From assembly GCA_902798205.1 (NCBI GenBank), contig CADBVV010000007.1:6852-70851 (forward strand): a stretch of DNA of 64,000 nucleotides. The letters are read 5' to 3'. Both the position numbers and the translations under genes were made by a program. Under the pieces are notes generated by a model. The model saw only the letters and a program-made list of their open reading frames with translations, ran no database searches and had not been told where the DNA came from. The stretch comes from an uncultured Pseudomonadota bacterium (GTDB taxonomy: Bacteria; Pseudomonadota; Alphaproteobacteria; Rs-D84). This document shows, piece after piece, positions 4,964 to 51,955 of the stretch; positions within the stretch are counted from its first letter, which is position 1, and each line of letters starts with the position of its first letter.

Positions 4964-6046
4964 TTAATTTATCGCCGCGTCAACCATTGGTCTGGTTTTG
5001 ACAGTATCCAATGGATGTTTTTGATATGCGACAGACGAAAAATCAATATTATTCAAATCGAATTTTCGAATTATTGGGTTATACATTGTCGTATAATACA
5101 ATTTGTTGTTTGTCATATCTGTCACAGATGTCCATTGGGTCGCAGTTGGTATATTTGGAATCTTTGTTTTATCTGCAAACTGCACACCAATTGGTATAGT
5201 CATCGCTTCCAATATTGTAAAAGCTTGATTTACTGCCTGGGCCGCATTTTCCAATATTGGTGCAGATGTTTGATAAAATGCAACACGAACAAATCTGGAC
5301 GGTGGTGTAAAATCACCTGGCAACCCCAACAGGTTAGATCCGTGTTCTATGGGTTCCAATGTGATATCACCAAATTTGTGTGATTCTGTTGTTCCTGGGC
5401 GCAAGTTTATATAATTATTCAAATTTGTAATATGCCATGGATAACCCGGCGCATTGGTAAGAACACCCAATTTATTTTCATAAACCATTGGCAAACCATC
5501 AACATATTCAATAACAATTTGACGACCATATTTATCTGCAACACGCCAATGCAGATTTTCTGCACGTGCATCTGTGGCGACAACATTGACGGTGCTTAAT
5601 GCTGCAATTACATCTTCGACAGTTTCAAAATTACCCAACACCCATGCAACAAATTCTGTGTCAGAAATTGTCATATCTTTTTCAGATGCATCATATTTTG
5701 GATAAGATCCATATTTTGGGAAATAGAATAACCCTGCAGACAGCCCTGCTTCGTTTAAACCTTCAATTACATAATCTTCAGAAGCCAAACCAACATAGCC
5801 GTAAAATGCGGTATATTTCATACCGTTCCTTGTTCCGTCTGGCAACACAGATTGTTTTTCATATCCCTGGGGAACAATTAAATAATCACTTGGGCTTTCG
5901 CCATTTGACCATTCAACTGTGCGCGCAACAATGTTTGCACCATCGGCAGCGGTTAACGAAATTCCTGTACAGGAATCGGCACGGTTTACAATGCCAACAA
6001 TCGCCAGCATCATAATAAATAAAGAGTTTAATTTTTTCGTTTTCAT
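4964..6046 (-). CDS. Choloylglycine hydrolase / penicillin V acylase family Ntn hydrolase with signal peptide
   Basis: Signal peptide ending ADS, then CTGISL (N-terminal Cys nucleophile); ARTVEW, GLNEAGL, GVLTNAP, PGDFTPPSRFVR. Confidence 0.92.
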   Translation of the reverse strand: MKTKKLNSLFIMMLAIVGIVNRADSCTGISLTAADGANIVARTVEWSNGESPSDYLIVPQGYEKQSVLPDGTRNGMKYTAFYGYVGLASEDYVIEGLNEAGLSAGLFYFPKYGSYPKYDASEKDMTISDTEFVAWVLGNFETVEDVIAALSTVNVVATDARAENLHWRVADKYGRQIVIEYVDGLPMVYENKLGVLTNAPGYPWHITNLNNYINLRPGTTESHKFGDITLEPIEHGSNLLGLPGDFTPPSRFVRVAFYQTSAPILENAAQAVNQAFTILEAMTIPIGVQFADKTKIPNIPTATQWTSVTDMTNNKLYYTTMYNPIIRKFDLNNIDFSSVAYQKHPLDTVKTRPMVDAAIN

Positions 6047-6099: not shown

Positions 6100-6126
6100 A
6101 AAAAACCGCCAATTTTGGCGGTTTTT
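6100..6126. terminator. Intrinsic terminator
   Basis: aaaaaaccgcca-attt-tggcggttttt. Confidence 0.8.
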
Positions 6127-6127
6127 A

Positions 6128-6577
6128 TTATTTTTGGTGTTGTCTTAATTCTAAAAGCTGTTGGTATAATTTCGCTTTTTCTGATTTAAAATCTGGTGTA
6201 TACAAAGAATAATATTTTTGTTCTATCTTTCGCATTTCTTGCTTTAACTTATAATCATCATCACATAAAGCATAATTAACCCGTAATACAGGTTCCTTGT
6301 ACTGCCCAAAAATATACGAATTATGGACAGACATATTAATACCGTTTCGCACAAAAATTTCTTGCGCTATTTGTATATCAGATTCTTGTTGTGTGGCATA
6401 ATATGCATAAAAACGTTTACCCAAAATATTTGCTTTTTTTACTTCTGGTGCACACATTTTGCACATTATCGCCAATAAAGCAATATCGCCTTCTGGTATT
6501 GTTTTAACTTTTGAAAAAACAGGCATTTGAAAACCAGATTTCAATTTGTCATTTAACATCTTAAAAAAACGCATCAT
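6128..6577 (-). CDS. Hypothetical protein
   Basis: Probable start ATG 6577 after an AAAGG RBS; own TTGACA-16-TATAAT promoter at 6605-6632 and own terminator. Confidence 0.6.
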   Translation of the reverse strand: MMRFFKMLNDKLKSGFQMPVFSKVKTIPEGDIALLAIMCKMCAPEVKKANILGKRFYAYYATQQESDIQIAQEIFVRNGINMSVHNSYIFGQYKEPVLRVNYALCDDDYKLKQEMRKIEQKYYSLYTPDFKSEKAKLYQQLLELRQHQK

Positions 6578-6635
6578 TAGAACCTTTGTTATAATCTGTG
6601 ACAGATTATAGACAAAAACAATCAAATGTCAAATA

Positions 6636-9600
6636 CTATATACCTAATCTGTGATGAATTTTGAACATCAATATTGATTCATTGCCGAACATATCTGTAT
6701 TACCAGGATTTACACGATATATAAATCCAATACCAGCATCAGTAAATTCACCCAATGGCTGTTTGTATGAACCGGAAAATCTTAATTCACGTTTTTGTGC
6801 CACCAAATCAATATATTCTGTGTGTGGGTTATTCACTGCAACTTCATATTTTCCATTATTTTCTACAACAGATAAATCTGCATAATCATAACCCATTTTA
6901 CCATCAACCACAGCCAAAGGCATCGCGGCAGTAAAACTGAACCCATAAACATCGGCACCAATTGCAAACGCATTTGATTTAATATCAGACATTTCAGAAA
7001 TTATACCATTTCCAATATTTGCACGGGTATTTGCGAAAGTTGCACGTGCTGACAATTTTGCCTTGTCAAAAGGTTTATAATCTGCAACCACGTCAACATA
7101 TTGTGTCTTTGCACCATTCAAAGACAACAGACCATCACTTATCGAACCCAACACAGTGTTTGTTTCATTCATATTTCCCAAAGATACATTTAAATTAAAT
7201 TTATCTTTGTTATATGCAACATCTATAGCCCCACCATTTGCAAACCCAAGATGTCCTGGTTCAAATTGAGACGTTACAACAGGATCATTTTCCAACAAAT
7301 TTTCATCTGTTATTGTTCCAGAAAACGCATGCGCACCAAACGCGAAATCACCAGATTTATATTTTGCCCCACTGGACACACCATTTGAAACCAAAGACAA
7401 CAATCCATTTGCACGACCATCAAATCTGGATTCGCCATCAGTCAAATGATGTTGATATTCGGCATTCAAATCATAACGTTCACTGTTAAATGATATTTTC
7501 AAATTATCCAAACCGTTCATATTATCATGATATGCACGTGGGGACATAGCCATATCAAATGTCATATTACCAATTTTATTAGAACGCTTATTTGTAGAAT
7601 CAACCGCAAATTCACCCAAAACATCGCCCATATAAAGTCCATGTTTATAATCATTATTCAAAGACAATTCCATATTCCAAACACGCGGCAAAGATATTGA
7701 ACCATCCGCACTTTCAATAACATCAAAGAAAGACGTTCTTATTATACCATTTCCATTTAACACCGTGGAAGCACGCTGATTTGTTGTAGACGATGTTGCA
7801 ACCGTTCCCCAAAAAGCTGTTTTACCATCTGATGAAACGATTTTTTTGTTGTTTTTATCTGCCACAGAATAAAAATAAATATTTGTCCCTGGCCTTGTTG
7901 CGCGTTCCAAATTTATCATACCATAACCAAATGCCATCTTGAAATTTTGCAAATATTGATCGTCAGAAGTTTCAAGATTACTTGGCAAACTATATTTTGC
8001 TTGCAAGAAAGAAGTTATATTATCATAACCGGCCTCTTTCAAAGCAGCCGCATTTAAATATGGACCGTCTGCAGATAAAGCCAATAACAAGAATATCTGA
8101 TCAGGTGTCATATAATTAAATGCACTTTTAACAAGCGCAACAGAACCAGCCATTGCCGCAGTTGCTTCCATATCTGTTGTTCCAGGTGCTGCAAAACACC
8201 ATGGGTTCATTGCACCACCATTACCCGTTCCCGTCAACCCACACATACGTGAAGTATATGTTGTACTGGAATCATTTGTATCTGTCCATGTCGCCAATTC
8301 TAATTTTCCAGCCCCAGAAGTATTATATTCATCAATGGTTACACCTGCAGTCCCTGTTGTACTGTTTGGTTTAACAGCTACAACTGTGGCAAAAAAGTTT
8401 TGTAAATTATCATAAACAACTGGTGCAAAATTTTCAAAAGTTGCGACTTCTGGATTAACCTTGTAAGCAGACAAGTTTATTACATTACGCCCTGCAGAAT
8501 TTATCAACAATGCATTACCATAAACCTGTTGCAAATTCCCAGACCCCACATTAACAAAAACATCAGCAGCATCTTGCGCGGGGGTATTCACATCGCCATC
8601 ATCTGCGGTATTTAAATTGTAATAATTATTTATCATATTTCCGAACATGGTTCTTCTTTGTGCTGCTTCTGTATAGTTATTAACAAAAAAACTGGCATCT
8701 GAAACATCTGAATAATTTAAAGAAGAAGATCCTGATGGCAACGATAAATTTGCAACAACACTTGTGATATATTCGCCATTTGAATTTTTCAACTTAAGAG
8801 AATCTTTTATCGCAGCATAATTTTTATAATCAGCAACGACCCACGAAGAACTTGATGTATCCCAAGCTTGACCAGCACCAGTTCTGTAAACAGTCAATTG
8901 ACCATTCGGAATAAATCCATAAAAATCACCAGAGGTACGTCCACCATAATTCCAACCTGCAATTATTTTTGCAAGTTTTGTATCTTCTTCTGTTGCTTCA
9001 TCACTAAACACAGCAGTTCCAATACCAGTCAAATCAAACGCAGTATTTTCAACACCTGGTTCACTCTTTAACCCGGTTATATTAAAATATTTATGAGAAC
9101 TTGTCACAGATGCATTAACAAGACTTTGACATTCTGGTGAAAAAACACCATCAACAGCCACGCACTTCGCTACAATTTCACTTTTATAAGATTCATCAAA
9201 CCATTGCATTATACCATCAATCGCGCTACCTGTGGCATTAACACCAGAACCCGTCACCATCGTAACATTTACAGGCCTGCCACCTTCTGGTGTATCACCA
9301 ACAAAAGGATATTTTGACAAATCTAAAATTTCTTTTGTGGTATCATTTCTTACAGTAGCCATACCCAAATACCCACGAACAAAAGAATTATATGCACGTG
9401 CCACCATCAAATAGTTGAAACTATTCCGTGCTGTAATGTCTGACATATAAACGAAATCACTGTTTGGATCAGTACTTTCCCACACGGTAAAATCTGTCGG
9501 GCAAGAAGTTCCAGAACACGCCGGACCATATGGAAGATTTTGTGTAAACAATGGTGTAAAAGATGTGGTACCACCACCACCGCCACCGCCACCGCCGTGC

Positions 9601-10067
9601 GATCCACCAGACGAACCAGAATCATTATTATTCTTTGCCTTGAAAGCGTCGGTCAATAATGCGACCCCACCAATCACCGCGGCCACACCAACCGCAGACA
9701 ATAACAAAACATGCGAAGAAGATAATCCACTGAAAAATCCGTATTCTTCGCCACGCGTTGCAACACGACTTTTTTGTCTGTAGTTTTTAATTTGTCGTTC
9801 ACAATTTGAAGCGTCCGCACCATACATCTGCAAGACCTGTATCGCGCGTTTATCATTGTTCATAACCGCAGTACAAACCAAAGATAATCCAGTTGAATCA
9901 GTATAATTTATATCGGCACCACGATTAATTAAAACCTGGACAGTTTGTGTATCGCCACGACGTGCAGCCGCCAATAATTGTGATGCGTTTTGAAAATCAG
10001 GCGATGCCCCGAACGACATGCACGGGAATAAAAATGCTACAAAGCCCAATAATCTAATAAATTTCAT
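6636..10067 (-). CDS. Secreted protein with ankyrin repeats, degenerate S8 subtilase-like domain and C-terminal beta-barrel-like domain
   Basis: Signal peptide; ankyrin (LLAAARRGDTQTVQVLINRGADINYTDSTG); poly-Gly linker; S8-like WCFAAPG, AGSVALVKSAF, FGYGMINL; C-terminal alternating beta-strands. Confidence 0.8.
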   Translation of the reverse strand: MKFIRLLGFVAFLFPCMSFGASPDFQNASQLLAAARRGDTQTVQVLINRGADINYTDSTGLSLVCTAVMNNDKRAIQVLQMYGADASNCERQIKNYRQKSRVATRGEEYGFFSGLSSSHVLLLSAVGVAAVIGGVALLTDAFKAKNNNDSGSSGGSHGGGGGGGGGTTSFTPLFTQNLPYGPACSGTSCPTDFTVWESTDPNSDFVYMSDITARNSFNYLMVARAYNSFVRGYLGMATVRNDTTKEILDLSKYPFVGDTPEGGRPVNVTMVTGSGVNATGSAIDGIMQWFDESYKSEIVAKCVAVDGVFSPECQSLVNASVTSSHKYFNITGLKSEPGVENTAFDLTGIGTAVFSDEATEEDTKLAKIIAGWNYGGRTSGDFYGFIPNGQLTVYRTGAGQAWDTSSSSWVVADYKNYAAIKDSLKLKNSNGEYITSVVANLSLPSGSSSLNYSDVSDASFFVNNYTEAAQRRTMFGNMINNYYNLNTADDGDVNTPAQDAADVFVNVGSGNLQQVYGNALLINSAGRNVINLSAYKVNPEVATFENFAPVVYDNLQNFFATVVAVKPNSTTGTAGVTIDEYNTSGAGKLELATWTDTNDSSTTYTSRMCGLTGTGNGGAMNPWCFAAPGTTDMEATAAMAGSVALVKSAFNYMTPDQIFLLLALSADGPYLNAAALKEAGYDNITSFLQAKYSLPSNLETSDDQYLQNFKMAFGYGMINLERATRPGTNIYFYSVADKNNKKIVSSDGKTAFWGTVATSSTTNQRASTVLNGNGIIRTSFFDVIESADGSISLPRVWNMELSLNNDYKHGLYMGDVLGEFAVDSTNKRSNKIGNMTFDMAMSPRAYHDNMNGLDNLKISFNSERYDLNAEYQHHLTDGESRFDGRANGLLSLVSNGVSSGAKYKSGDFAFGAHAFSGTITDENLLENDPVVTSQFEPGHLGFANGGAIDVAYNKDKFNLNVSLGNMNETNTVLGSISDGLLSLNGAKTQYVDVVADYKPFDKAKLSARATFANTRANIGNGIISEMSDIKSNAFAIGADVYGFSFTAAMPLAVVDGKMGYDYADLSVVENNGKYEVAVNNPHTEYIDLVAQKRELRFSGSYKQPLGEFTDAGIGFIYRVNPGNTDMFGNESILMFKIHHRLGI

Positions 10068-22876: not shown

Positions 22877-24904
22877 ATGAATAAAGAAAAATCAGAAATT
22901 GTAAAACAGGTATCGCCATATCTCGAACGCTATAAAGATAAAATAGTGGTTGTGAAATATGGCGGTAATGCCATGATTAATGAAGAATTAAAACAACAGG
23001 TTATGGAAGACATTTCATTATTGTGGTCCATGGGGGTCAAAGTTGTTTTGGTTCATGGTGGTGGTCCTGAAATAAATTCTTTGATGGAAAGATTGGGACA
23101 TGTTCCGCAATTCATTGATGGGTTAAGAGTCACTGATAAAGAAACAGTTGATATTGTTCAAATGGTTTTGGCCGGCAAAGTCAACAAAGGTCTGGTAAAT
23201 CTGTTGGGCAAAAACGGCAGCAAAGCAATCGGTTTGTCTGGTATGGATGGCGGAATGCTGATGTGCAAACAAAAAGATGAAAGATTGGGTTTTGTTGGCG
23301 ATGTAGAAAAAGTCAACCCACAACCTATTCTTGATTTGATTGAAAAAGGTTATATACCTGTTATTTCAACTGTCGGGGCAGATGCAAAAGGCAATGTTTA
23401 CAACATTAATGGCGATACCGCTACTTCCTATATTGCGGGTGCATTAAATGCAGAAAGATTAATCATGATGACCGACATTGCTGGAATATTACGCGACAAA
23501 GATGATCCATCTACACTTATTTCTGAAATCTCTGTTTCTGAATCTGCGAAATTAAAAACTGACGGAATAATTTCTGGTGGCATGATACCAAAGGTTGAAT
23601 GTGCGGTTAAAGCCGTTAATGCAGGCGTTAATAATGTCGCCATCATAGATGGACGTATTCCTCATTCAATTCTTAAAGAATTGGCATCAGATAAAGGAAC
23701 AGGAACAATAATTACCAAGGATAAAAAAATGAATATTCAAGAAATGGATAAAAAATATATTGCATCAACTTATAACAGATTTCCTGTGACTATTGTTTCA
23801 GGCAAAGGTTCAATTGCTGTTGATGTAAACGGTAAAAAATATATTGATATGGGTTCTGGAATCGGTGTGACCAGTTTTGGTTACTGCGATGAAATTTGGC
23901 AAAACGCAATAAGTGAACAAATTCATCTGGTGCAACATACTTCTAATTTATATTATACAGAACCATGTGCAAAATTGGCTGAAATTTTGGCAAAAAAGAC
24001 AGGTATGTCAAAAGTGTTCTTTTCTAATTCTGGGGCGGAAGCAAACGAATGTGCAATCAAAGCAGCCAGAAAATATGCATCTGAAACAAAAGGTAAAGAT
24101 TGCTATAATATCGTAACACTTTGGAACGGTTTCCATGGACGCACATTGACAACCCTGGCCGCGACAGGTCAAGAACATTATCATGAACTTTTCCAACCTT
24201 TGACCCAAGGGTTTAAACATATCCATGTTGGCGATATCAACGAATTAAAATCTGTTGATCCAAAAACAACAGCCGCGATTATGATTGAATGCATCCAAGG
24301 CGAAGGTGGTGTAAACGTTCTGCCAAAAGAATATGTAAAAGCAATCGAAAATTATTGCAAACAAAATAATATTTTGTTGATTGTCGATGAAGTGCAAACC
24401 GGTAACGGAAGAACAGGTGAATTTTATTCATATATGAATTACGGTATTAAACCAGATATTGTAAGTACAGCAAAAGGACTTGCCGGTGGATTGCCTATGG
24501 GTGCAACAATGCTGGGTGAAAAAGTGAAAGATGTTTTTGCTTTTGGTGATCATGGGTCAACTTTTGGTGGCAACCCTGTTGCAGCAGCAGCAGCCGTTTC
24601 AATTGTGAACAGAATTGATTCAAAATTACTGGGTGATGTAAAACAAAAAGGAAAGTTTATAAAAGATTTCTTTCAAAACAATCCTGATGTTGAACAAATA
24701 TCTGGTATGGGTTTAATGGTCGGTATCAAACCTGCAAATAAACCAGCCGCAGAAGTTGTAAAACAATGTATGGAAAAAGGTGTTCTTTGCCTTACTGCGA
24801 AAGACAAGGTAAGATTGTTACCTGCCCTGAATATCCCATTGGATACATTAAAAGAAGCATTAGAAATAATAAAATCTTCAATGGCAAAAACACAAACACG
24901 ATAA
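22877..24904 (+). CDS. argB: Fused acetylglutamate kinase (ArgB) and acetylornithine aminotransferase (ArgD)
   Basis: Residues 1-284: VVKYGGNAM, VHGGGP, NINGD, GGMIPK. From Met285 (23729): SNSGAEANE, FHGRT, DEVQTG, AKGLAGG, HGSTFGGNP. Confidence 0.93.
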   Translation: MNKEKSEIVKQVSPYLERYKDKIVVVKYGGNAMINEELKQQVMEDISLLWSMGVKVVLVHGGGPEINSLMERLGHVPQFIDGLRVTDKETVDIVQMVLAGKVNKGLVNLLGKNGSKAIGLSGMDGGMLMCKQKDERLGFVGDVEKVNPQPILDLIEKGYIPVISTVGADAKGNVYNINGDTATSYIAGALNAERLIMMTDIAGILRDKDDPSTLISEISVSESAKLKTDGIISGGMIPKVECAVKAVNAGVNNVAIIDGRIPHSILKELASDKGTGTIITKDKKMNIQEMDKKYIASTYNRFPVTIVSGKGSIAVDVNGKKYIDMGSGIGVTSFGYCDEIWQNAISEQIHLVQHTSNLYYTEPCAKLAEILAKKTGMSKVFFSNSGAEANECAIKAARKYASETKGKDCYNIVTLWNGFHGRTLTTLAATGQEHYHELFQPLTQGFKHIHVGDINELKSVDPKTTAAIMIECIQGEGGVNVLPKEYVKAIENYCKQNNILLIVDEVQTGNGRTGEFYSYMNYGIKPDIVSTAKGLAGGLPMGATMLGEKVKDVFAFGDHGSTFGGNPVAAAAAVSIVNRIDSKLLGDVKQKGKFIKDFFQNNPDVEQISGMGLMVGIKPANKPAAEVVKQCMEKGVLCLTAKDKVRLLPALNIPLDTLKEALEIIKSSMAKTQTR

Positions 24905-48028: not shown

Positions 48029-51000
48029 TTAGAAGTTACATCTTAATTTCAACATACCAGTTTGAGATGTGTAATCTTTACGAACATCAATATCGTAATT
48101 TAATGCTATATCCAAGTTACGATATTTCATACCCAAACCGATACCGAATTCACCACCAATACGACTTAAACGTTCACCATCCATTGTATAAGAATTAATA
48201 CCTGGCATTGTGACGGTTGCGATATTTTTATCAGACAACAAATCATATTTAAATCCGGCATTCAATTGTGGCATAAATGTTGTATATTTCCCTGCAACTA
48301 CATTAAACGCATATTTTGCACCCAATATACCTGTCAAGAAATTTGCATTATCCATATGTGTTTTTACACCAAATGAATTCGTATAATCATCGGCAGTAAC
48401 ATGGATATAACGCAATCCCAATTCTGGGGTTATACCTGTATTAAAGTTATAACCAGTCGCGACATTACCACCATATGATTTAACAGAATAATCTGCAAAT
48501 ATTGGTGTGTTGTCAATAACAGTTCCTTTTTCAGAATAATCCGATGAAGTATAATTCGCAATTGCATTCAAATACCATTGTGATGGTTTATATTGACCAT
48601 ACACAAATACAGTGTTTGAATTGATTGCTGTATCACGTGCGGATCCACTGATATCAGAATGTGCGAACGAATACCCTGCACCGATTGTCCAACGTTTGTT
48701 TATAGTTCCATCTAAACCAAGTGCGATTCCACGTGTATAACCGTTAAATGCATCTGCTTGTTTAGATCTGTTGTATAAACCTTGGGCCCAAACACCACCA
48801 GAAGTCAATTTTGCATCACCACCGTTACGACCCACAATTGGGGCAGCCATACGAGATGCCGCCAGGTTAACAATTGTGTTTTGAACAGATGTTGATACAG
48901 ATTGTGCAACAGATTCGGTTTCTGGGTGAATTGCCTTGGTTGCATATTCAACAGATGCGGTATCGCCTGAGGCCAATTTTTCTTGCAATTTCACAGACAA
49001 CTCTTTCATCTGTTTTGATGAAGAATTGGAAGCAGATTCTACAACCGCCGCAACTGCTGTCGCTGAATCTTTCGAGATTTCAGAACCAGCAACAATTTCG
49101 TCTGCTGTTTTGCTTGATGCGGTTACATCACCACCATCCCAAGACAAATTGTAAACAGAACTTACAACTTTATCAGTAAACGAAACACCTGTTTCACCAC
49201 TTGCAACGTTCCATGTCAAATCTTCGATATCAAAGTCTGCTTTTCCACCAAAGACATGATATGTACCGGTTTCGGTCATTGTTAACGCCAATTTACCATC
49301 ACCATCAAATTCTTGTGCATTGATTTGTGCATCTTCTGCACCCTTGGTCAATGTTGCAGTCATATTACCATTTAATATGATTGTATCTTGGGTAATAGAT
49401 GCGGTGCCAATATTCAATGTTGCGCCATTGGCAATCGTCAAATCACCATTACCAGTGATACCACCATTAATTGTTGTTGTTCCAGATGCAATCGTCAAAT
49501 CACCAACATTGTGGATATCATTAGCATTGTCGCCGGCCTTATTTCCAGTAAACTTGTTTATACCGGCCAAAGTCAAGACACCTTCGTTATAAATAGCGCC
49601 ACCATTTTCAGATGCAATATTAGACGTAAATGATGAATTGGTTAATTTGATATTACCAACCTTGCCATCTGCGGCATCGTTATATATTGCCCCACCATTG
49701 TATGCTTCATTTTTTGTAAATGTTGAATCAGAAATCGTTGCAAAACCTTCACCTTTCTTGTTATTCCAAACATTCGCATAAATAGCTCCACCAAACCCAC
49801 GTATATTTGCAAAGTTACTTGCAGAAACAGAATCAGATGTCGCGTCATAGATAACACCAGCTTTGTTACCAATAAATGTGCTGTTTGTAATATCAAGTTT
49901 TTCACCAACATTGTTTTGGGCGGTTGTACGCGTTGAAATTGCACCGCCTCCTAATGTTGTGTAATTGTTCTTGAATTCTGTTCCAGAAATTGTAACTAAC
50001 GATTCAGATCCCAAAGACAACGCACCAGCACCTTCCATTTGGTTTTGATTTGACACAGACATTGCAGCAAAAGCATCCGCATCATTGAATGTAGTATAAT
50101 TATTGATAAAGTGAGAATTTGTTATAGAAGATTCTGCAGATTTATCAAAAATACCAACTGCACCGTTTTCGTTTGCATGATTGTTTCTGAAAGTTGTTCC
50201 TGAAATTGTCAAAGTACTTGGCGCATTCACAACAGTTCTTATTGCTGCACCATAATCAGCAGTATTACCATCAAACAAAGAATCTGTCACTGTTAATTTT
50301 CCGGTTGAGAAAACAGCCCCCCCTGTTACAGTGGCGTTATTATCAACAAATTCACCATTGGCTATATTCATTATACCAGAATTATAAATCGCACCACCTC
50401 TGGTTGCCGTATTTTCAGTAAATGTATATGTACCATTGGTCAAATTCACTTCTGCAACCTTGCCAGCATCAGCAAAATTGTAAATCGCACCACCATTCAA
50501 TGTTGCGGTATTATTTTCAAATGTCGTTGTACCATTGATTGTTAAATATGCATTACCATCTGTATCAACAGCACGGTTCATAATTGCACCACCGTTCATC
50601 GAAGAAGTGTTTTCTGTAAATATATTTGTGCTGGTGCCATCTTCTTTGCCAATAACCATATCTGCATCGATTGGTGTATGAACGCCTTCAACCTCGTAAG
50701 ACTGGTTTGCAACCGCACCACCACCACGTTTGTGCAATTTAGCAGCAATATCTGTTCCTAATATTTTATTGCCTGTAAACGTATTGGTTGCGCCCAATAT
50801 GGACATATTTCCACCAGTGCCGAATACAGCACCACCACTGCTGGCACTGTAATCCGATGTATTATTGCTGAATGTTATATTATTTGCAATAAGGCGTGCG
50901 GCATTATCTCCTGCTGTTTGATCTTTGAAATATAAAGCCGCACCATGTGACGTAGAAGTATTATTATCAAACAATAATGATTCGCCACCTGCCAGTAAAG

Positions 51001-51955
51001 AACCACCTTTATTCATTGTGATGGCCCCATAATCTGATACAACGTTTTTGACAACTGTGCTTCCTGTGCCTTCTGGGTTCAACACCAATGTGGCACCTGG
51101 CTTTATATCTAATTTAGAACCATCAATATTAATTTCATCTGCGTTTAATGTTGTTACACCATCTGAATCAATATCTTCTGCATTTGTATAAAATCTATTT
51201 GCAGTATTCAACAATGCAGTATCCTGTTTAACAAATGTCAATTTTGAACCATTTGTCACTGAAATTTTATCAGCATTAATTGTCGAACCATCAACCACGG
51301 CATCAACATCATCAAGAGCAAGAACACCATCATTAGAAGCATCTGTATCTTTACGTGACATCACATAAACTGCACCAGCCGCACCGTTAACAGCCTCTGT
51401 CACCTTTGCTGTCAATGCATCACCTGTATACCCCAAATCAGAAAAAACTGTTGTCATAGCTGCAACTAAATTTTGATTGATAGTCTGATAGTCCGAAAAA
51501 TCATCTTTTTCACCCCAACCTATATTTGCGGCTTTTGCAATATCCATATCGGCATTAACGTCTTCATCTGGAGCTTGCCAATTAAATGCGAATTTATCAC
51601 CTTCGTCCAAACTATCTAATGTTAAAGTGATTGGACCAAAATAAGCATCACTGTTGGACAACGCAAATGATTGGCCAACCATATTATAATTTGGAAAGAC
51701 ATTATGATATTTACTAGAGACCGTACTGTCGGCCAAACGACGCCCCCCAAATGCGGCCTCGCTAGCCGCAACATGTTGACCAGCGAAAGAAACATCACCA
51801 AAAACCCATGCATTACCATCTGTATTTGGTGCAGCGGCCATTGCAGGTGTTGCAACCATTAAACCAAATGCAATTGCATTGCATAAAATACCATGACGCA
51901 GAACAGCGCGATACGCCGCAGTTAATTCTTTTAATGTGGTTTTGGATTGTTTCAT
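48029..51955 (-). CDS. Autotransporter adhesin with Pmp-like GGA(I/V)/FxxN beta-helix repeats
   Basis: Long signal peptide; about ten GGA(I/V) motifs paired with FxxN; C-terminal autotransporter barrel (GGVWAQG...) ending in Phe. Confidence 0.9.
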   Translation of the reverse strand: MKQSKTTLKELTAAYRAVLRHGILCNAIAFGLMVATPAMAAAPNTDGNAWVFGDVSFAGQHVAASEAAFGGRRLADSTVSSKYHNVFPNYNMVGQSFALSNSDAYFGPITLTLDSLDEGDKFAFNWQAPDEDVNADMDIAKAANIGWGEKDDFSDYQTINQNLVAAMTTVFSDLGYTGDALTAKVTEAVNGAAGAVYVMSRKDTDASNDGVLALDDVDAVVDGSTINADKISVTNGSKLTFVKQDTALLNTANRFYTNAEDIDSDGVTTLNADEINIDGSKLDIKPGATLVLNPEGTGSTVVKNVVSDYGAITMNKGGSLLAGGESLLFDNNTSTSHGAALYFKDQTAGDNAARLIANNITFSNNTSDYSASSGGAVFGTGGNMSILGATNTFTGNKILGTDIAAKLHKRGGGAVANQSYEVEGVHTPIDADMVIGKEDGTSTNIFTENTSSMNGGAIMNRAVDTDGNAYLTINGTTTFENNTATLNGGAIYNFADAGKVAEVNLTNGTYTFTENTATRGGAIYNSGIMNIANGEFVDNNATVTGGAVFSTGKLTVTDSLFDGNTADYGAAIRTVVNAPSTLTISGTTFRNNHANENGAVGIFDKSAESSITNSHFINNYTTFNDADAFAAMSVSNQNQMEGAGALSLGSESLVTISGTEFKNNYTTLGGGAISTRTTAQNNVGEKLDITNSTFIGNKAGVIYDATSDSVSASNFANIRGFGGAIYANVWNNKKGEGFATISDSTFTKNEAYNGGAIYNDAADGKVGNIKLTNSSFTSNIASENGGAIYNEGVLTLAGINKFTGNKAGDNANDIHNVGDLTIASGTTTINGGITGNGDLTIANGATLNIGTASITQDTIILNGNMTATLTKGAEDAQINAQEFDGDGKLALTMTETGTYHVFGGKADFDIEDLTWNVASGETGVSFTDKVVSSVYNLSWDGGDVTASSKTADEIVAGSEISKDSATAVAAVVESASNSSSKQMKELSVKLQEKLASGDTASVEYATKAIHPETESVAQSVSTSVQNTIVNLAASRMAAPIVGRNGGDAKLTSGGVWAQGLYNRSKQADAFNGYTRGIALGLDGTINKRWTIGAGYSFAHSDISGSARDTAINSNTVFVYGQYKPSQWYLNAIANYTSSDYSEKGTVIDNTPIFADYSVKSYGGNVATGYNFNTGITPELGLRYIHVTADDYTNSFGVKTHMDNANFLTGILGAKYAFNVVAGKYTTFMPQLNAGFKYDLLSDKNIATVTMPGINSYTMDGERLSRIGGEFGIGLGMKYRNLDIALNYDIDVRKDYTSQTGMLKLRCNF

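Follow-up and report, generated by a model that had tools for sequence, protein, structure and literature searches.

A subtilase-type pseudoprotease joined to an ankyrin module and a predicted porin-like barrel in the alphaproteobacterial order Rs-D84

We analyzed a stretch of 64,000 nucleotides from an uncultured Pseudomonadota bacterium of the alphaproteobacterial lineage Rs-D84 (assembly GCA_902798205.1, contig CADBVV010000007.1, positions 6,852 to 70,851 of the forward strand); this whole stretch is called the window below. A gene on its minus strand at 6636-10067 encodes a 1143-aa protein that carries, from the N-terminus to the C-terminus, a Sec signal peptide, a two-repeat ankyrin module, a hydrophobic helix, a Gly-rich linker, a subtilase-fold domain and a C-terminal beta-barrel. 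Judged from alignments, the central domain is a pseudoprotease: the enzyme fold is kept, the catalytic residues are lost, and the protein is conserved over its full length. We consider it probable that this is a non-catalytic binding or scaffold protein, which is anchored in the outer membrane and works with the Cys-rich proteins of the divergent operon next to it. A binding scaffold and not an enzyme is the most likely function because every catalytic residue of the fused subtilase fold has been lost. The gene and its parts are as follows.

6636-10067, minus strand: whole gene, 1143-aa ankyrin / hydrophobic helix / pseudo-subtilase / beta-barrel protein (list of open reading frames (ORFs) and translation)
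10005-10067, minus strand: Sec-type signal peptide, residues 1-21 (MKFIR, a hydrophobic core and SFGA, by reading the sequence)
9771-9998, minus strand: two ankyrin repeats and a capping helix, residues 24-99 (Ank_4, DARPin alignments, model helices at 23-100)
9654-9719, minus strand: hydrophobic helix rich in small residues (AAxxGG), residues 117-138 (free energy (dG), model helix, conservation)
9555-9653, minus strand: flexible Asn/Ser/Gly-rich linker with a poly-Gly run, residues 139-171 (sequence, predicted local distance difference test score (pLDDT) of about 30)
7833-9554, minus strand: subtilase-fold domain without catalytic residues, residues 172-745 (AlphaFold model (AF2), Foldseek, alignment of relatives)
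7746-7832, minus strand: linker between the dead-protease domain and the barrel, residues 746-774 (pLDDT below 50 at 746-764)
6639-7745, minus strand: predicted porin-like outer-membrane beta-barrel, residues 775-1143 (AF2, Foldseek, strand pattern)

The full-length AF2 model was built from a 52-sequence alignment and had a mean pLDDT of 80.8 and a predicted template modelling score (pTM) of 0.59, with low-confidence stretches at residues 100-172 and 746-764. In this model, residues 172-745 form a confident globular alpha/beta domain, with pLDDT mostly above 90. Using Foldseek, we matched the domain model to the fusolisin protease of Fusobacterium (8AXG, E 2e-8), to the Ssp autotransporter protease and to subtilisins (E about 1e-4, template modelling score (TM-score) of 0.5-0.59 on the target). 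The full-length model also matched the mycosins MycP1/3 and PvSUB1. These matches bear out the S8 scaffold that the original prediction, made from the letters of the DNA, had placed in the central domain. On the model, the domain is of the alpha/beta subtilase fold.

Profile searches were also made. In Pfam, PF00082 did not match the window protein at E<=1, and its cut-off of 21.8 bits was passed by one of 22 family members, P0004 (28.3 bits), a homologue 70% identical to the window protein. A profile of the subtilase-fold region gave nothing at E<=10 against the sequences of the PDB. When this profile was compared by hhalign with subtilisin BPN' (with an approximate query sequence), only the C-terminal FGYGxIN was aligned, with a probability of 1.5%. 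Because this direct alignment covered so little, the catalytic positions were mapped through distant relatives. An exhaustive HMMER search of 1.8 billion representatives with the family profile matched just 65 proteins, and the pseudo-subtilase family is thus a closed one. The weakest of these matches (E 4e-4) was P0227, which has the same overall architecture as the window protein and matches PF00082 with an E of 5e-19. In alignments of P0227, GTS falls on Ser221 of subtilisin, and the CG...WC..A.G motif coincides with its counterpart in Ssp. In the window protein, the C609/C624 pair fits the CGxxxxxC..APG motif of the Ssp autotransporter protease, and both Cys residues are kept in all 80 species of our alignment and in the distant relatives. 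The motifs of the fold core are likewise conserved: PVxVAxITGxG, LAKIIAGW, GFxPNGQLxxYRTG, ATFENxAP, SRxCG...PWCFAAxG, AGxVAxVKSAF and FGYGxINLxRA. Many family members carry a beta-rich-looking insert of ~70-100 residues at residues 404/405 (about 8853-8858), for example ...GDTLxLxGxTLTVxSV...YxGYIxxDxLYI..., which is absent from the window protein and a few close relatives. From the alignment, this insert is a variable add-on inside the dead-protease domain.

P0227 lies in a tandem pair of the locus L085 (JGI metagenome 3300037826), which consists of L085:6523-9927 and L085:10001-13522, the latter being P0227 itself. The pair comes from a distant bacterium (GC 37%; its FtsH is 46% identical to that of the window), and an ordinary small outer-membrane barrel gene comes after it. 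The first paralogue (1134 aa) shares the architecture of the window protein and retains every catalytic element: VVDTGFD, DHGSHVAGIIAA, SAGNDG and QGTSMASP. In P0227, His is replaced by Arg, and the oxyanion Asn by Asp. With an intact neighbor beside these losses, the L085 lineage holds a pair of an active and a degenerate protein. Since the distant relative keeps the full catalytic set, the family descends from active proteases of the same architecture. The active sister lineage is rare in databases, because a homologue search with P0227 returned only P0227 itself and two ordinary S8 proteins.

The catalytic columns were determined with MAFFT and hhalign against L085:6523-9927 and P0227 and were counted over 51 family members and then over 80 species-level sequences. 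The positions in the window are given below.

9252-9254, minus strand: codon of T272 at the position of Asp32; T or S in 76 of 80 sequences, never Asp
8985-8987, minus strand: codon of E361 at the position of His64; D, E, S, N, L, T, Y or A across the family, never His
8487-8489, minus strand: codon of R527 at the position of the oxyanion Asn155; A, G, R, D, E or H across the family; SAGN of the active relative aligns to SAGR
8166-8177, minus strand: residues 631-634, where the Ser221 turn is deleted (alignment to the intact relative)

With the stretch from APG to the GTS turn deleted, APG runs straight into the next helix. The Asp, His, Ser and oxyanion Asn are absent from all 80 species-level members, as they are from all 51 members of the first alignment. 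The substitutions that had been proposed for the Asp, His and Ser motifs are therefore confirmed by alignment to the intact relative, and the loss of the oxyanion Asn (R527) comes in addition to these three motifs. N440 was tried as the oxyanion Asn and rejected; alignment to the active relative identifies it as the structural Asn of the NxSxG strand. The label of a pseudo-protease, which was also part of the original prediction, is justified, because the fold is kept while all four residues are gone in every member examined. Cleavage of peptides by the subtilase mechanism would not be possible for such a protein.

It could be supposed that enzymatic activity persists at a relocated or non-canonical site, for which Thr631, E545/N546, D362 and K367 are the candidates. 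Near-invariant polar residues do lie by the former active site (T631, D/E362, K367, N440, E545 and N546). However, the 80-sequence alignment holds no conserved His, Ser or free Cys that could serve an alternative active site, as C609 and C624 correspond to the two Cys of the Ssp motif. Thr631 is replaced by Asn, Ser, Asp or Arg in 20 of the 80 species, the whole nucleophile turn is deleted, and the motifs that are conserved fall on the strands and helices that form the core of the fold. We therefore regard a hidden enzyme as quite unlikely.

Loss of catalysis with retention of the subtilase fold is known from other systems. CspA and CspC of Clostridioides difficile kept the fold after losing catalysis and use it for binding or regulation, and the active and inactive paralogues of L085 would resemble CspB with CspA/CspC. 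Unlike the window protein, the Csp proteins are soluble, belong to the spores of Firmicutes and have no barrel or ankyrin repeats, and the likeness lies in the S8 fold. Mycosins are membrane-tethered subtilases whose presence, and not activity, stabilizes the type VII secretion complex. MycP1 and MycP3 are among the top structural matches of the window protein, and the mycosin profile of NCBIfam (TIGR03921) gives a weak match, but with 14.6 bits against a cut-off of 278.75 the window protein is not a member of that family. In contrast to the window protein, mycosins keep the catalytic triad and are anchored by a C-terminal helix in a membrane of the Gram-positive type. By analogy, the window protein would work most like a structurally used tethered subtilase, such as the mycosins, or like the C. 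difficile pseudoproteases.

The family is limited to Candidatus (Ca.) Enterousia / the order Rs-D84. Protein databases hold 373 homologues of 1110-1270 aa, nearly all of them from gut metagenomes. They are annotated only as 'hypothetical' or 'ankyrin repeat protein', and the sole informative name is 'ankyrin repeat domain-containing protein [Candidatus Enterousia merdequi]'. Scanning one genome per species, we found relatives of the gene in 285 species. All of these are metagenome-assembled genomes labelled Ca. Enterousia or uncultured Alphaproteobacteria, and they come from the rumen and from horse, human, mouse and termite gut. In the NCBI taxonomy, Ca. Enterousia is placed in Alphaproteobacteria incertae sedis; it has been assigned to the GTDB order Rs-D84, whose genomes are mostly smaller than 1 Mb and whose members are believed to need partner cells (PMC12306168). 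Literature searches found no description of the pseudo-subtilase family.

The C-terminal part of the protein was assessed in the same model. AF2 predicts residues 775-1139 to be all-beta, with 19 long strands and a pLDDT of ~85-90. Followed back from the C-terminal end, the strands are joined by a short turn and a long loop in alternation, as expected for an outer-membrane barrel of ~18 strands, which an additional strand precedes; the count is approximate. The strands are amphipathic. The C-terminus of the window protein reads ...MFKIHHRLGI and that of other members has a final W or F, which resembles a beta-signal. An outer-membrane location is suggested by the alternation of short turns and long loops, the amphipathic strands and the hydrophobic or aromatic C-terminal end. 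Foldseek matched the barrel best to BpsOmp38 (E 8e-6), then to Omp32, the Rhodobacter porin 2por, OmpF and chitoporin, and also to BcsC. The matched porins are 16-stranded, and over E values of 8e-6 to 1e-4 their TM-scores were just 0.43-0.47. A 28-sequence barrel profile gave only spurious matches against PDB sequences, and when the barrel alone was used to search for homologues, only fragments from the family itself came back.

The original prediction had called the protein autotransporter-like. The barrel itself is present at residues 775-1139, but its autotransporter character did not hold. The window provides an internal control for the detection of autotransporters, namely a second large surface protein, a classical autotransporter, at 48029-51955 on the minus strand (1308 aa, Chlamydia-PMP repeats), in which PF03797 finds a beta-domain with an E of 4e-33. 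The same profile matched neither the 1143-aa protein nor any of 22 family members. When the barrel profile was compared by hhalign with the beta-domain of this control, the probability was 0.4%, and there were no autotransporter barrels among the top 50 Foldseek matches of the full-length model. On the model, the barrel is a larger, porin-like one of ~18 strands and not an autotransporter beta-domain. Nevertheless, the order of parts, with a Sec signal and a passenger N-terminal to the barrel, is present in the sequence and the model, and the S8 domain is most like those of the autotransporters fusolisin and Ssp. Both would be expected of a classical type Va autotransporter whose beta-domain has diverged past recognition. 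We consider this very improbable in view of the failed profile and hhalign comparisons, the ~18-19 strands over 370 residues with porins as the top fold matches, and the additional ankyrin module and helix upstream.

What the window protein shares with the S8A autotransporter proteases (fusolisin 8AXG, Ssp 8E7F, NalP and SphB1) is an N-terminal Sec signal and an S8 fold that a C-terminal barrel keeps at the outer membrane; its S8 domain is closest to theirs (review, PMC9289746). Fusolisin is the best structural match, and the Cys-Cys motif before APG is common to the window protein and Ssp. The differences are considerable. The window protein has lost all catalytic residues, its barrel lacks PF03797 and has ~18 strands rather than 12, and it adds the N-terminal ankyrin module, hydrophobic helix and Gly linker. 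We identified no beta-helical stalk: no passenger repeat was matched, and with 29 residues the linker 746-774 is too short to accommodate one.

At the N-terminus, the n/h/c character of the signal peptide and its A-x-A-like ends are kept family-wide despite an identity of 38%. A lipoprotein anchor at C16 was rejected, as this Cys is not conserved and the lipobox is absent. An ankyrin domain had been expected behind the signal peptide, and it was found there by Pfam Ank_4 (28.0 bits with a cut-off of 22.7, residues 31-79) and by DARPin alignments spanning residues 24-88. The ankyrin profile was matched above its cut-off by all 22 family members. The module contains a Cys pair: C65 is kept in 79 of 80 sequences (with one gap) and C89 in 80 of 80, and the L085 relatives keep the pair too. 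A basic stretch, KNYRQKSRVATR, and a nearly invariant FSGLS motif precede the hydrophobic helix VLLLSAVGVAAVIGGVALL (residues 120-138), whose summed Hessa-scale dG is about -1.4 kcal/mol. In the AF2 model this segment is predicted to be helical, with a pLDDT below 50, and is docked to nothing. Every member has a low-complexity linker after this segment; that of the L085 relatives is acidic. The second hydrophobic helix and the poly-Gly linker of the original prediction are thus real features, conserved across the family.

The flanks of the helix are basic on the N side and neutral or acidic on the C side throughout the family. This raises another explanation, a trans-envelope tether like VirB10 or TonB, in which the helix is an inner-membrane anchor with the N-terminus in and the C-terminus out, the ankyrin module is cytoplasmic, and the linker and dead subtilase span the periplasm. 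The charge bias is extreme in the L085 relatives, and a small-xxx-small motif, typical where membrane helices pack, is conserved in the helix. Besides, ankyrin domains are usually cytoplasmic. On the other hand, all members have a textbook cleavable signal peptide, which would export the ankyrin module first, and the invariant Cys pair of this module suggests an oxidizing compartment. By a hand estimate on the Hessa scale, the equivalent segment of the L085 relatives is only marginally hydrophobic. We consider a tether unlikely.

Next to the gene, on the other strand, lies a four-gene operon (10175-15450) for Cys-rich signal-peptide proteins, opA to opD.

10068-10174, no strand: divergent intergenic region of 107 bp between the gene and the Cys-rich operon
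10175-11065, plus strand: opA, 296 aa, 21 Cys, secreted (translation, Cys count)
11067-12731, plus strand: opB, 554 aa, 16 Cys, secreted (translation, Cys count)
12737-14098, plus strand: opC, 453 aa, 19 Cys, signal-peptide protein (translation)
14086-15450, plus strand: opD, 454 aa, 5 Cys, signal-peptide protein (translation)

The intergenic region has weak promoter-like sites at 10121..10092 (minus strand) and 10156..10184 (plus strand), which are consensus matches only. A module of 6 Cys is common to opA and opB. We compared the neighborhoods of 84 loci by tblastn. Homologues of opA and opB adjoin the gene, usually divergently, in nearly all loci with enough upstream flank, and this adjacency holds at ~40% identity, where the L9 and OmpA neighbors of the window go undetected. 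In the same loci, the CBAH gene is on the other strand or absent. Homologues of opD occur in many loci, while opC is poorly conserved. The divergent arrangement, about which the original prediction had asked whether it is constant, is therefore nearly general in the family, but it does not extend to the L085 relatives. A shared inner-membrane helix bundle was considered and dropped, as opB and opD have so much Gly and Ser in their hydrophobic stretches that these do not score as membrane helices.

Taken together, the favored reading of a non-catalytic scaffold would work as follows. The barrel would fix the protein in the outer membrane. The preserved, fast-evolving subtilase fold would be a binding or scaffolding module, most probably at the cell surface, and the ankyrin module would be retained in the periplasm, where it would hold a conserved partner and C65 and C89 could form a disulfide. 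The likeliest partners or clients would be the Cys-rich secreted proteins opA, opB and often opD, with which the protein may assemble into a complex in the envelope or at the surface of these partner-dependent bacteria. The periplasmic location of the ankyrin module is suggested by the A-x-A-like ends of the signal peptide and the kept C65/C89 pair. As for the subtilase fold, we determined the identity to the window protein for each part over 51 members. The ankyrin module is the most conserved part (71%), and it is followed by the hydrophobic helix (59%) and the barrel (53%), while the subtilase-fold domain reaches 39% and has indels of ~70 to >100 residues, the largest of them in P0201. The linker 746-774, in which AF2 predicts no helix, has the lowest conservation of all parts (31%). 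A surface-exposed subtilase fold is favored because it is the least conserved of the compared domains, has large indels and has its nearest S8 relatives among the autotransporter proteases (fusolisin and Ssp), with which it has the Cys-Cys motif before APG in common. A surface subtilase fold combined with a periplasmic ankyrin module is thus favored on three grounds: the signal peptide, the Cys pair and how differently the two modules are conserved.

The same data can be read with the barrel as the working part. In that case it would be a porin or an export channel for nutrients or Cys-rich proteins, and the dead subtilase and the ankyrin module would be a periplasmic accessory or plug, as the tetratricopeptide repeats (TPR) of BcsC/PgaA are. 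General porins and BcsC are the nearest folds of the C-terminal domain, the barrel is better conserved than the subtilase-fold domain, no autotransporter signature was found with PF03797 or hhalign, and the linker 746-774 lacks a predicted pore-threading helix. Standard transporters are also reported to be missing from Rs-D84 genomes (PMC12306168). BcsC/PgaA likewise place a helical-repeat module upstream of a large C-terminal barrel, and BcsC and the porins Omp32/OmpF are among the fold matches. However, we found no sequence similarity to any of these proteins, and over all of them the TM-scores were only 0.25-0.47, with 0.43-0.47 for the porins. Moreover, the repeats of the window protein are ankyrin and not TPR, and a globular dead-enzyme domain stands between them and the barrel. 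The variable, indel-rich subtilase-fold domain, with its closest S8 relatives being surface autotransporter proteases, fits exposure better than a periplasmic adaptor. We give a channel a small but real chance.

The readings differ in where the hydrophobic helix is placed. It may be fully exported and lie in or under the outer membrane or in the barrel lumen; the whole N-terminal part may be periplasmic, with the barrel as a channel; or the helix may be an inner-membrane anchor, with the protein as a trans-envelope tether. The first placement corresponds to loop display, a more specific form of the scaffold reading. Here the subtilase fold would be on the surface and dock the Cys-rich operon proteins, the ankyrin module would be periplasmic, and both connectors would pass through the lumen of the ~18-strand barrel. 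These connectors would be the N-terminal hydrophobic helix with the Gly linker and the C-terminal linker, which would make the protein a 'two-ended' relative of type V secretion. We hold this arrangement to be doubtful.

Several observations weigh against the surface scaffold. A hydrophobic helix behind an exported ankyrin module is expected to be a stop-transfer anchor, which is incompatible with a downstream outer-membrane barrel. By the positive-inside rule, its basic N-flank argues for an N-in orientation, and this clashes with an exported ankyrin module. The long loops of the barrel are highly conserved, which is unusual if they are exposed. The AF2 model, with its pTM of 0.59, leaves the ankyrin module, helix and linkers undocked. 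As for the operon, opA to opD have no family match in Pfam, NCBIfam or the PDB, opA and opB neighbors are absent at the L085 relatives, and the link to opA/opB is one of gene adjacency and no proof of physical interaction.

The remainder of the window is ordinary chromosome (SurA, L9, FtsH, GroEL, PFOR), and some neighbors deserve mention. A perfect sigma-70 consensus (TTGACA, 16 nt, TATAAT; 12/12) lies at 6605-6632 on the minus strand, 4 bases past the stop codon of the pseudo-subtilase gene. By its position, it would drive a 165-aa ORF at 6128-6625, which is fast-evolving, whose true start is probably further downstream, and for which searches of Pfam, NCBIfam and the PDB gave nothing. A strong bidirectional terminator-like hairpin follows this ORF at 6101-6126. 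Two genes downstream of the pseudo-subtilase gene, at 4964-6046 on the minus strand, is a choloylglycine hydrolase (bile-salt-hydrolase / Ntn-hydrolase) gene, which is also nearby in many related loci. CspC, the C. difficile subtilase pseudoprotease, is linked to bile-acid sensing. This proximity is curious given CspC, but it may be plain synteny. On the plus strand, a three-helix membrane protein at 16959-18128 has weak ZorA/MotA-like similarity (24 bits, far below the cut-off) and stands beside an OmpA-family protein at 18157-19257; the two are syntenic with the locus in closer relatives and could be a stator-like or Tol/Exb-like envelope pair. A 675-aa ORF at 22877-24904 on the plus strand fuses an amino-acid kinase (PF00696) and a class-III aminotransferase (PF00202). 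From these domains it looks like an unusual ArgB-type/ArgD-type fusion in a genome-reduced organism.

The gene of the pseudo-subtilase is 3.4 kb long, and it is kept in 285 species with streamlined genomes, almost always by the same Cys-rich genes. Such retention suggests that it is likely a central piece of the cell surface or envelope. The guts of ruminants, horses, humans, mice and termites are widely populated by Ca. Enterousia / Rs-D84 bacteria, for which no route to most metabolites is known (PMC12306168), and the window protein is a candidate for their contact with partner cells or the host. What is new here is a clear family of bacterial outer-membrane pseudoproteases, as judged from alignments and models, a domain architecture that would anchor S8 folds on a non-autotransporter barrel, and a topological puzzle, in which an exported ankyrin module is followed by a hydrophobic helix and then by an outer-membrane barrel. 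If loop display is true, it would be an undescribed mode of outer-membrane protein display and would provide a surface docking platform in bacteria attached to other cells.

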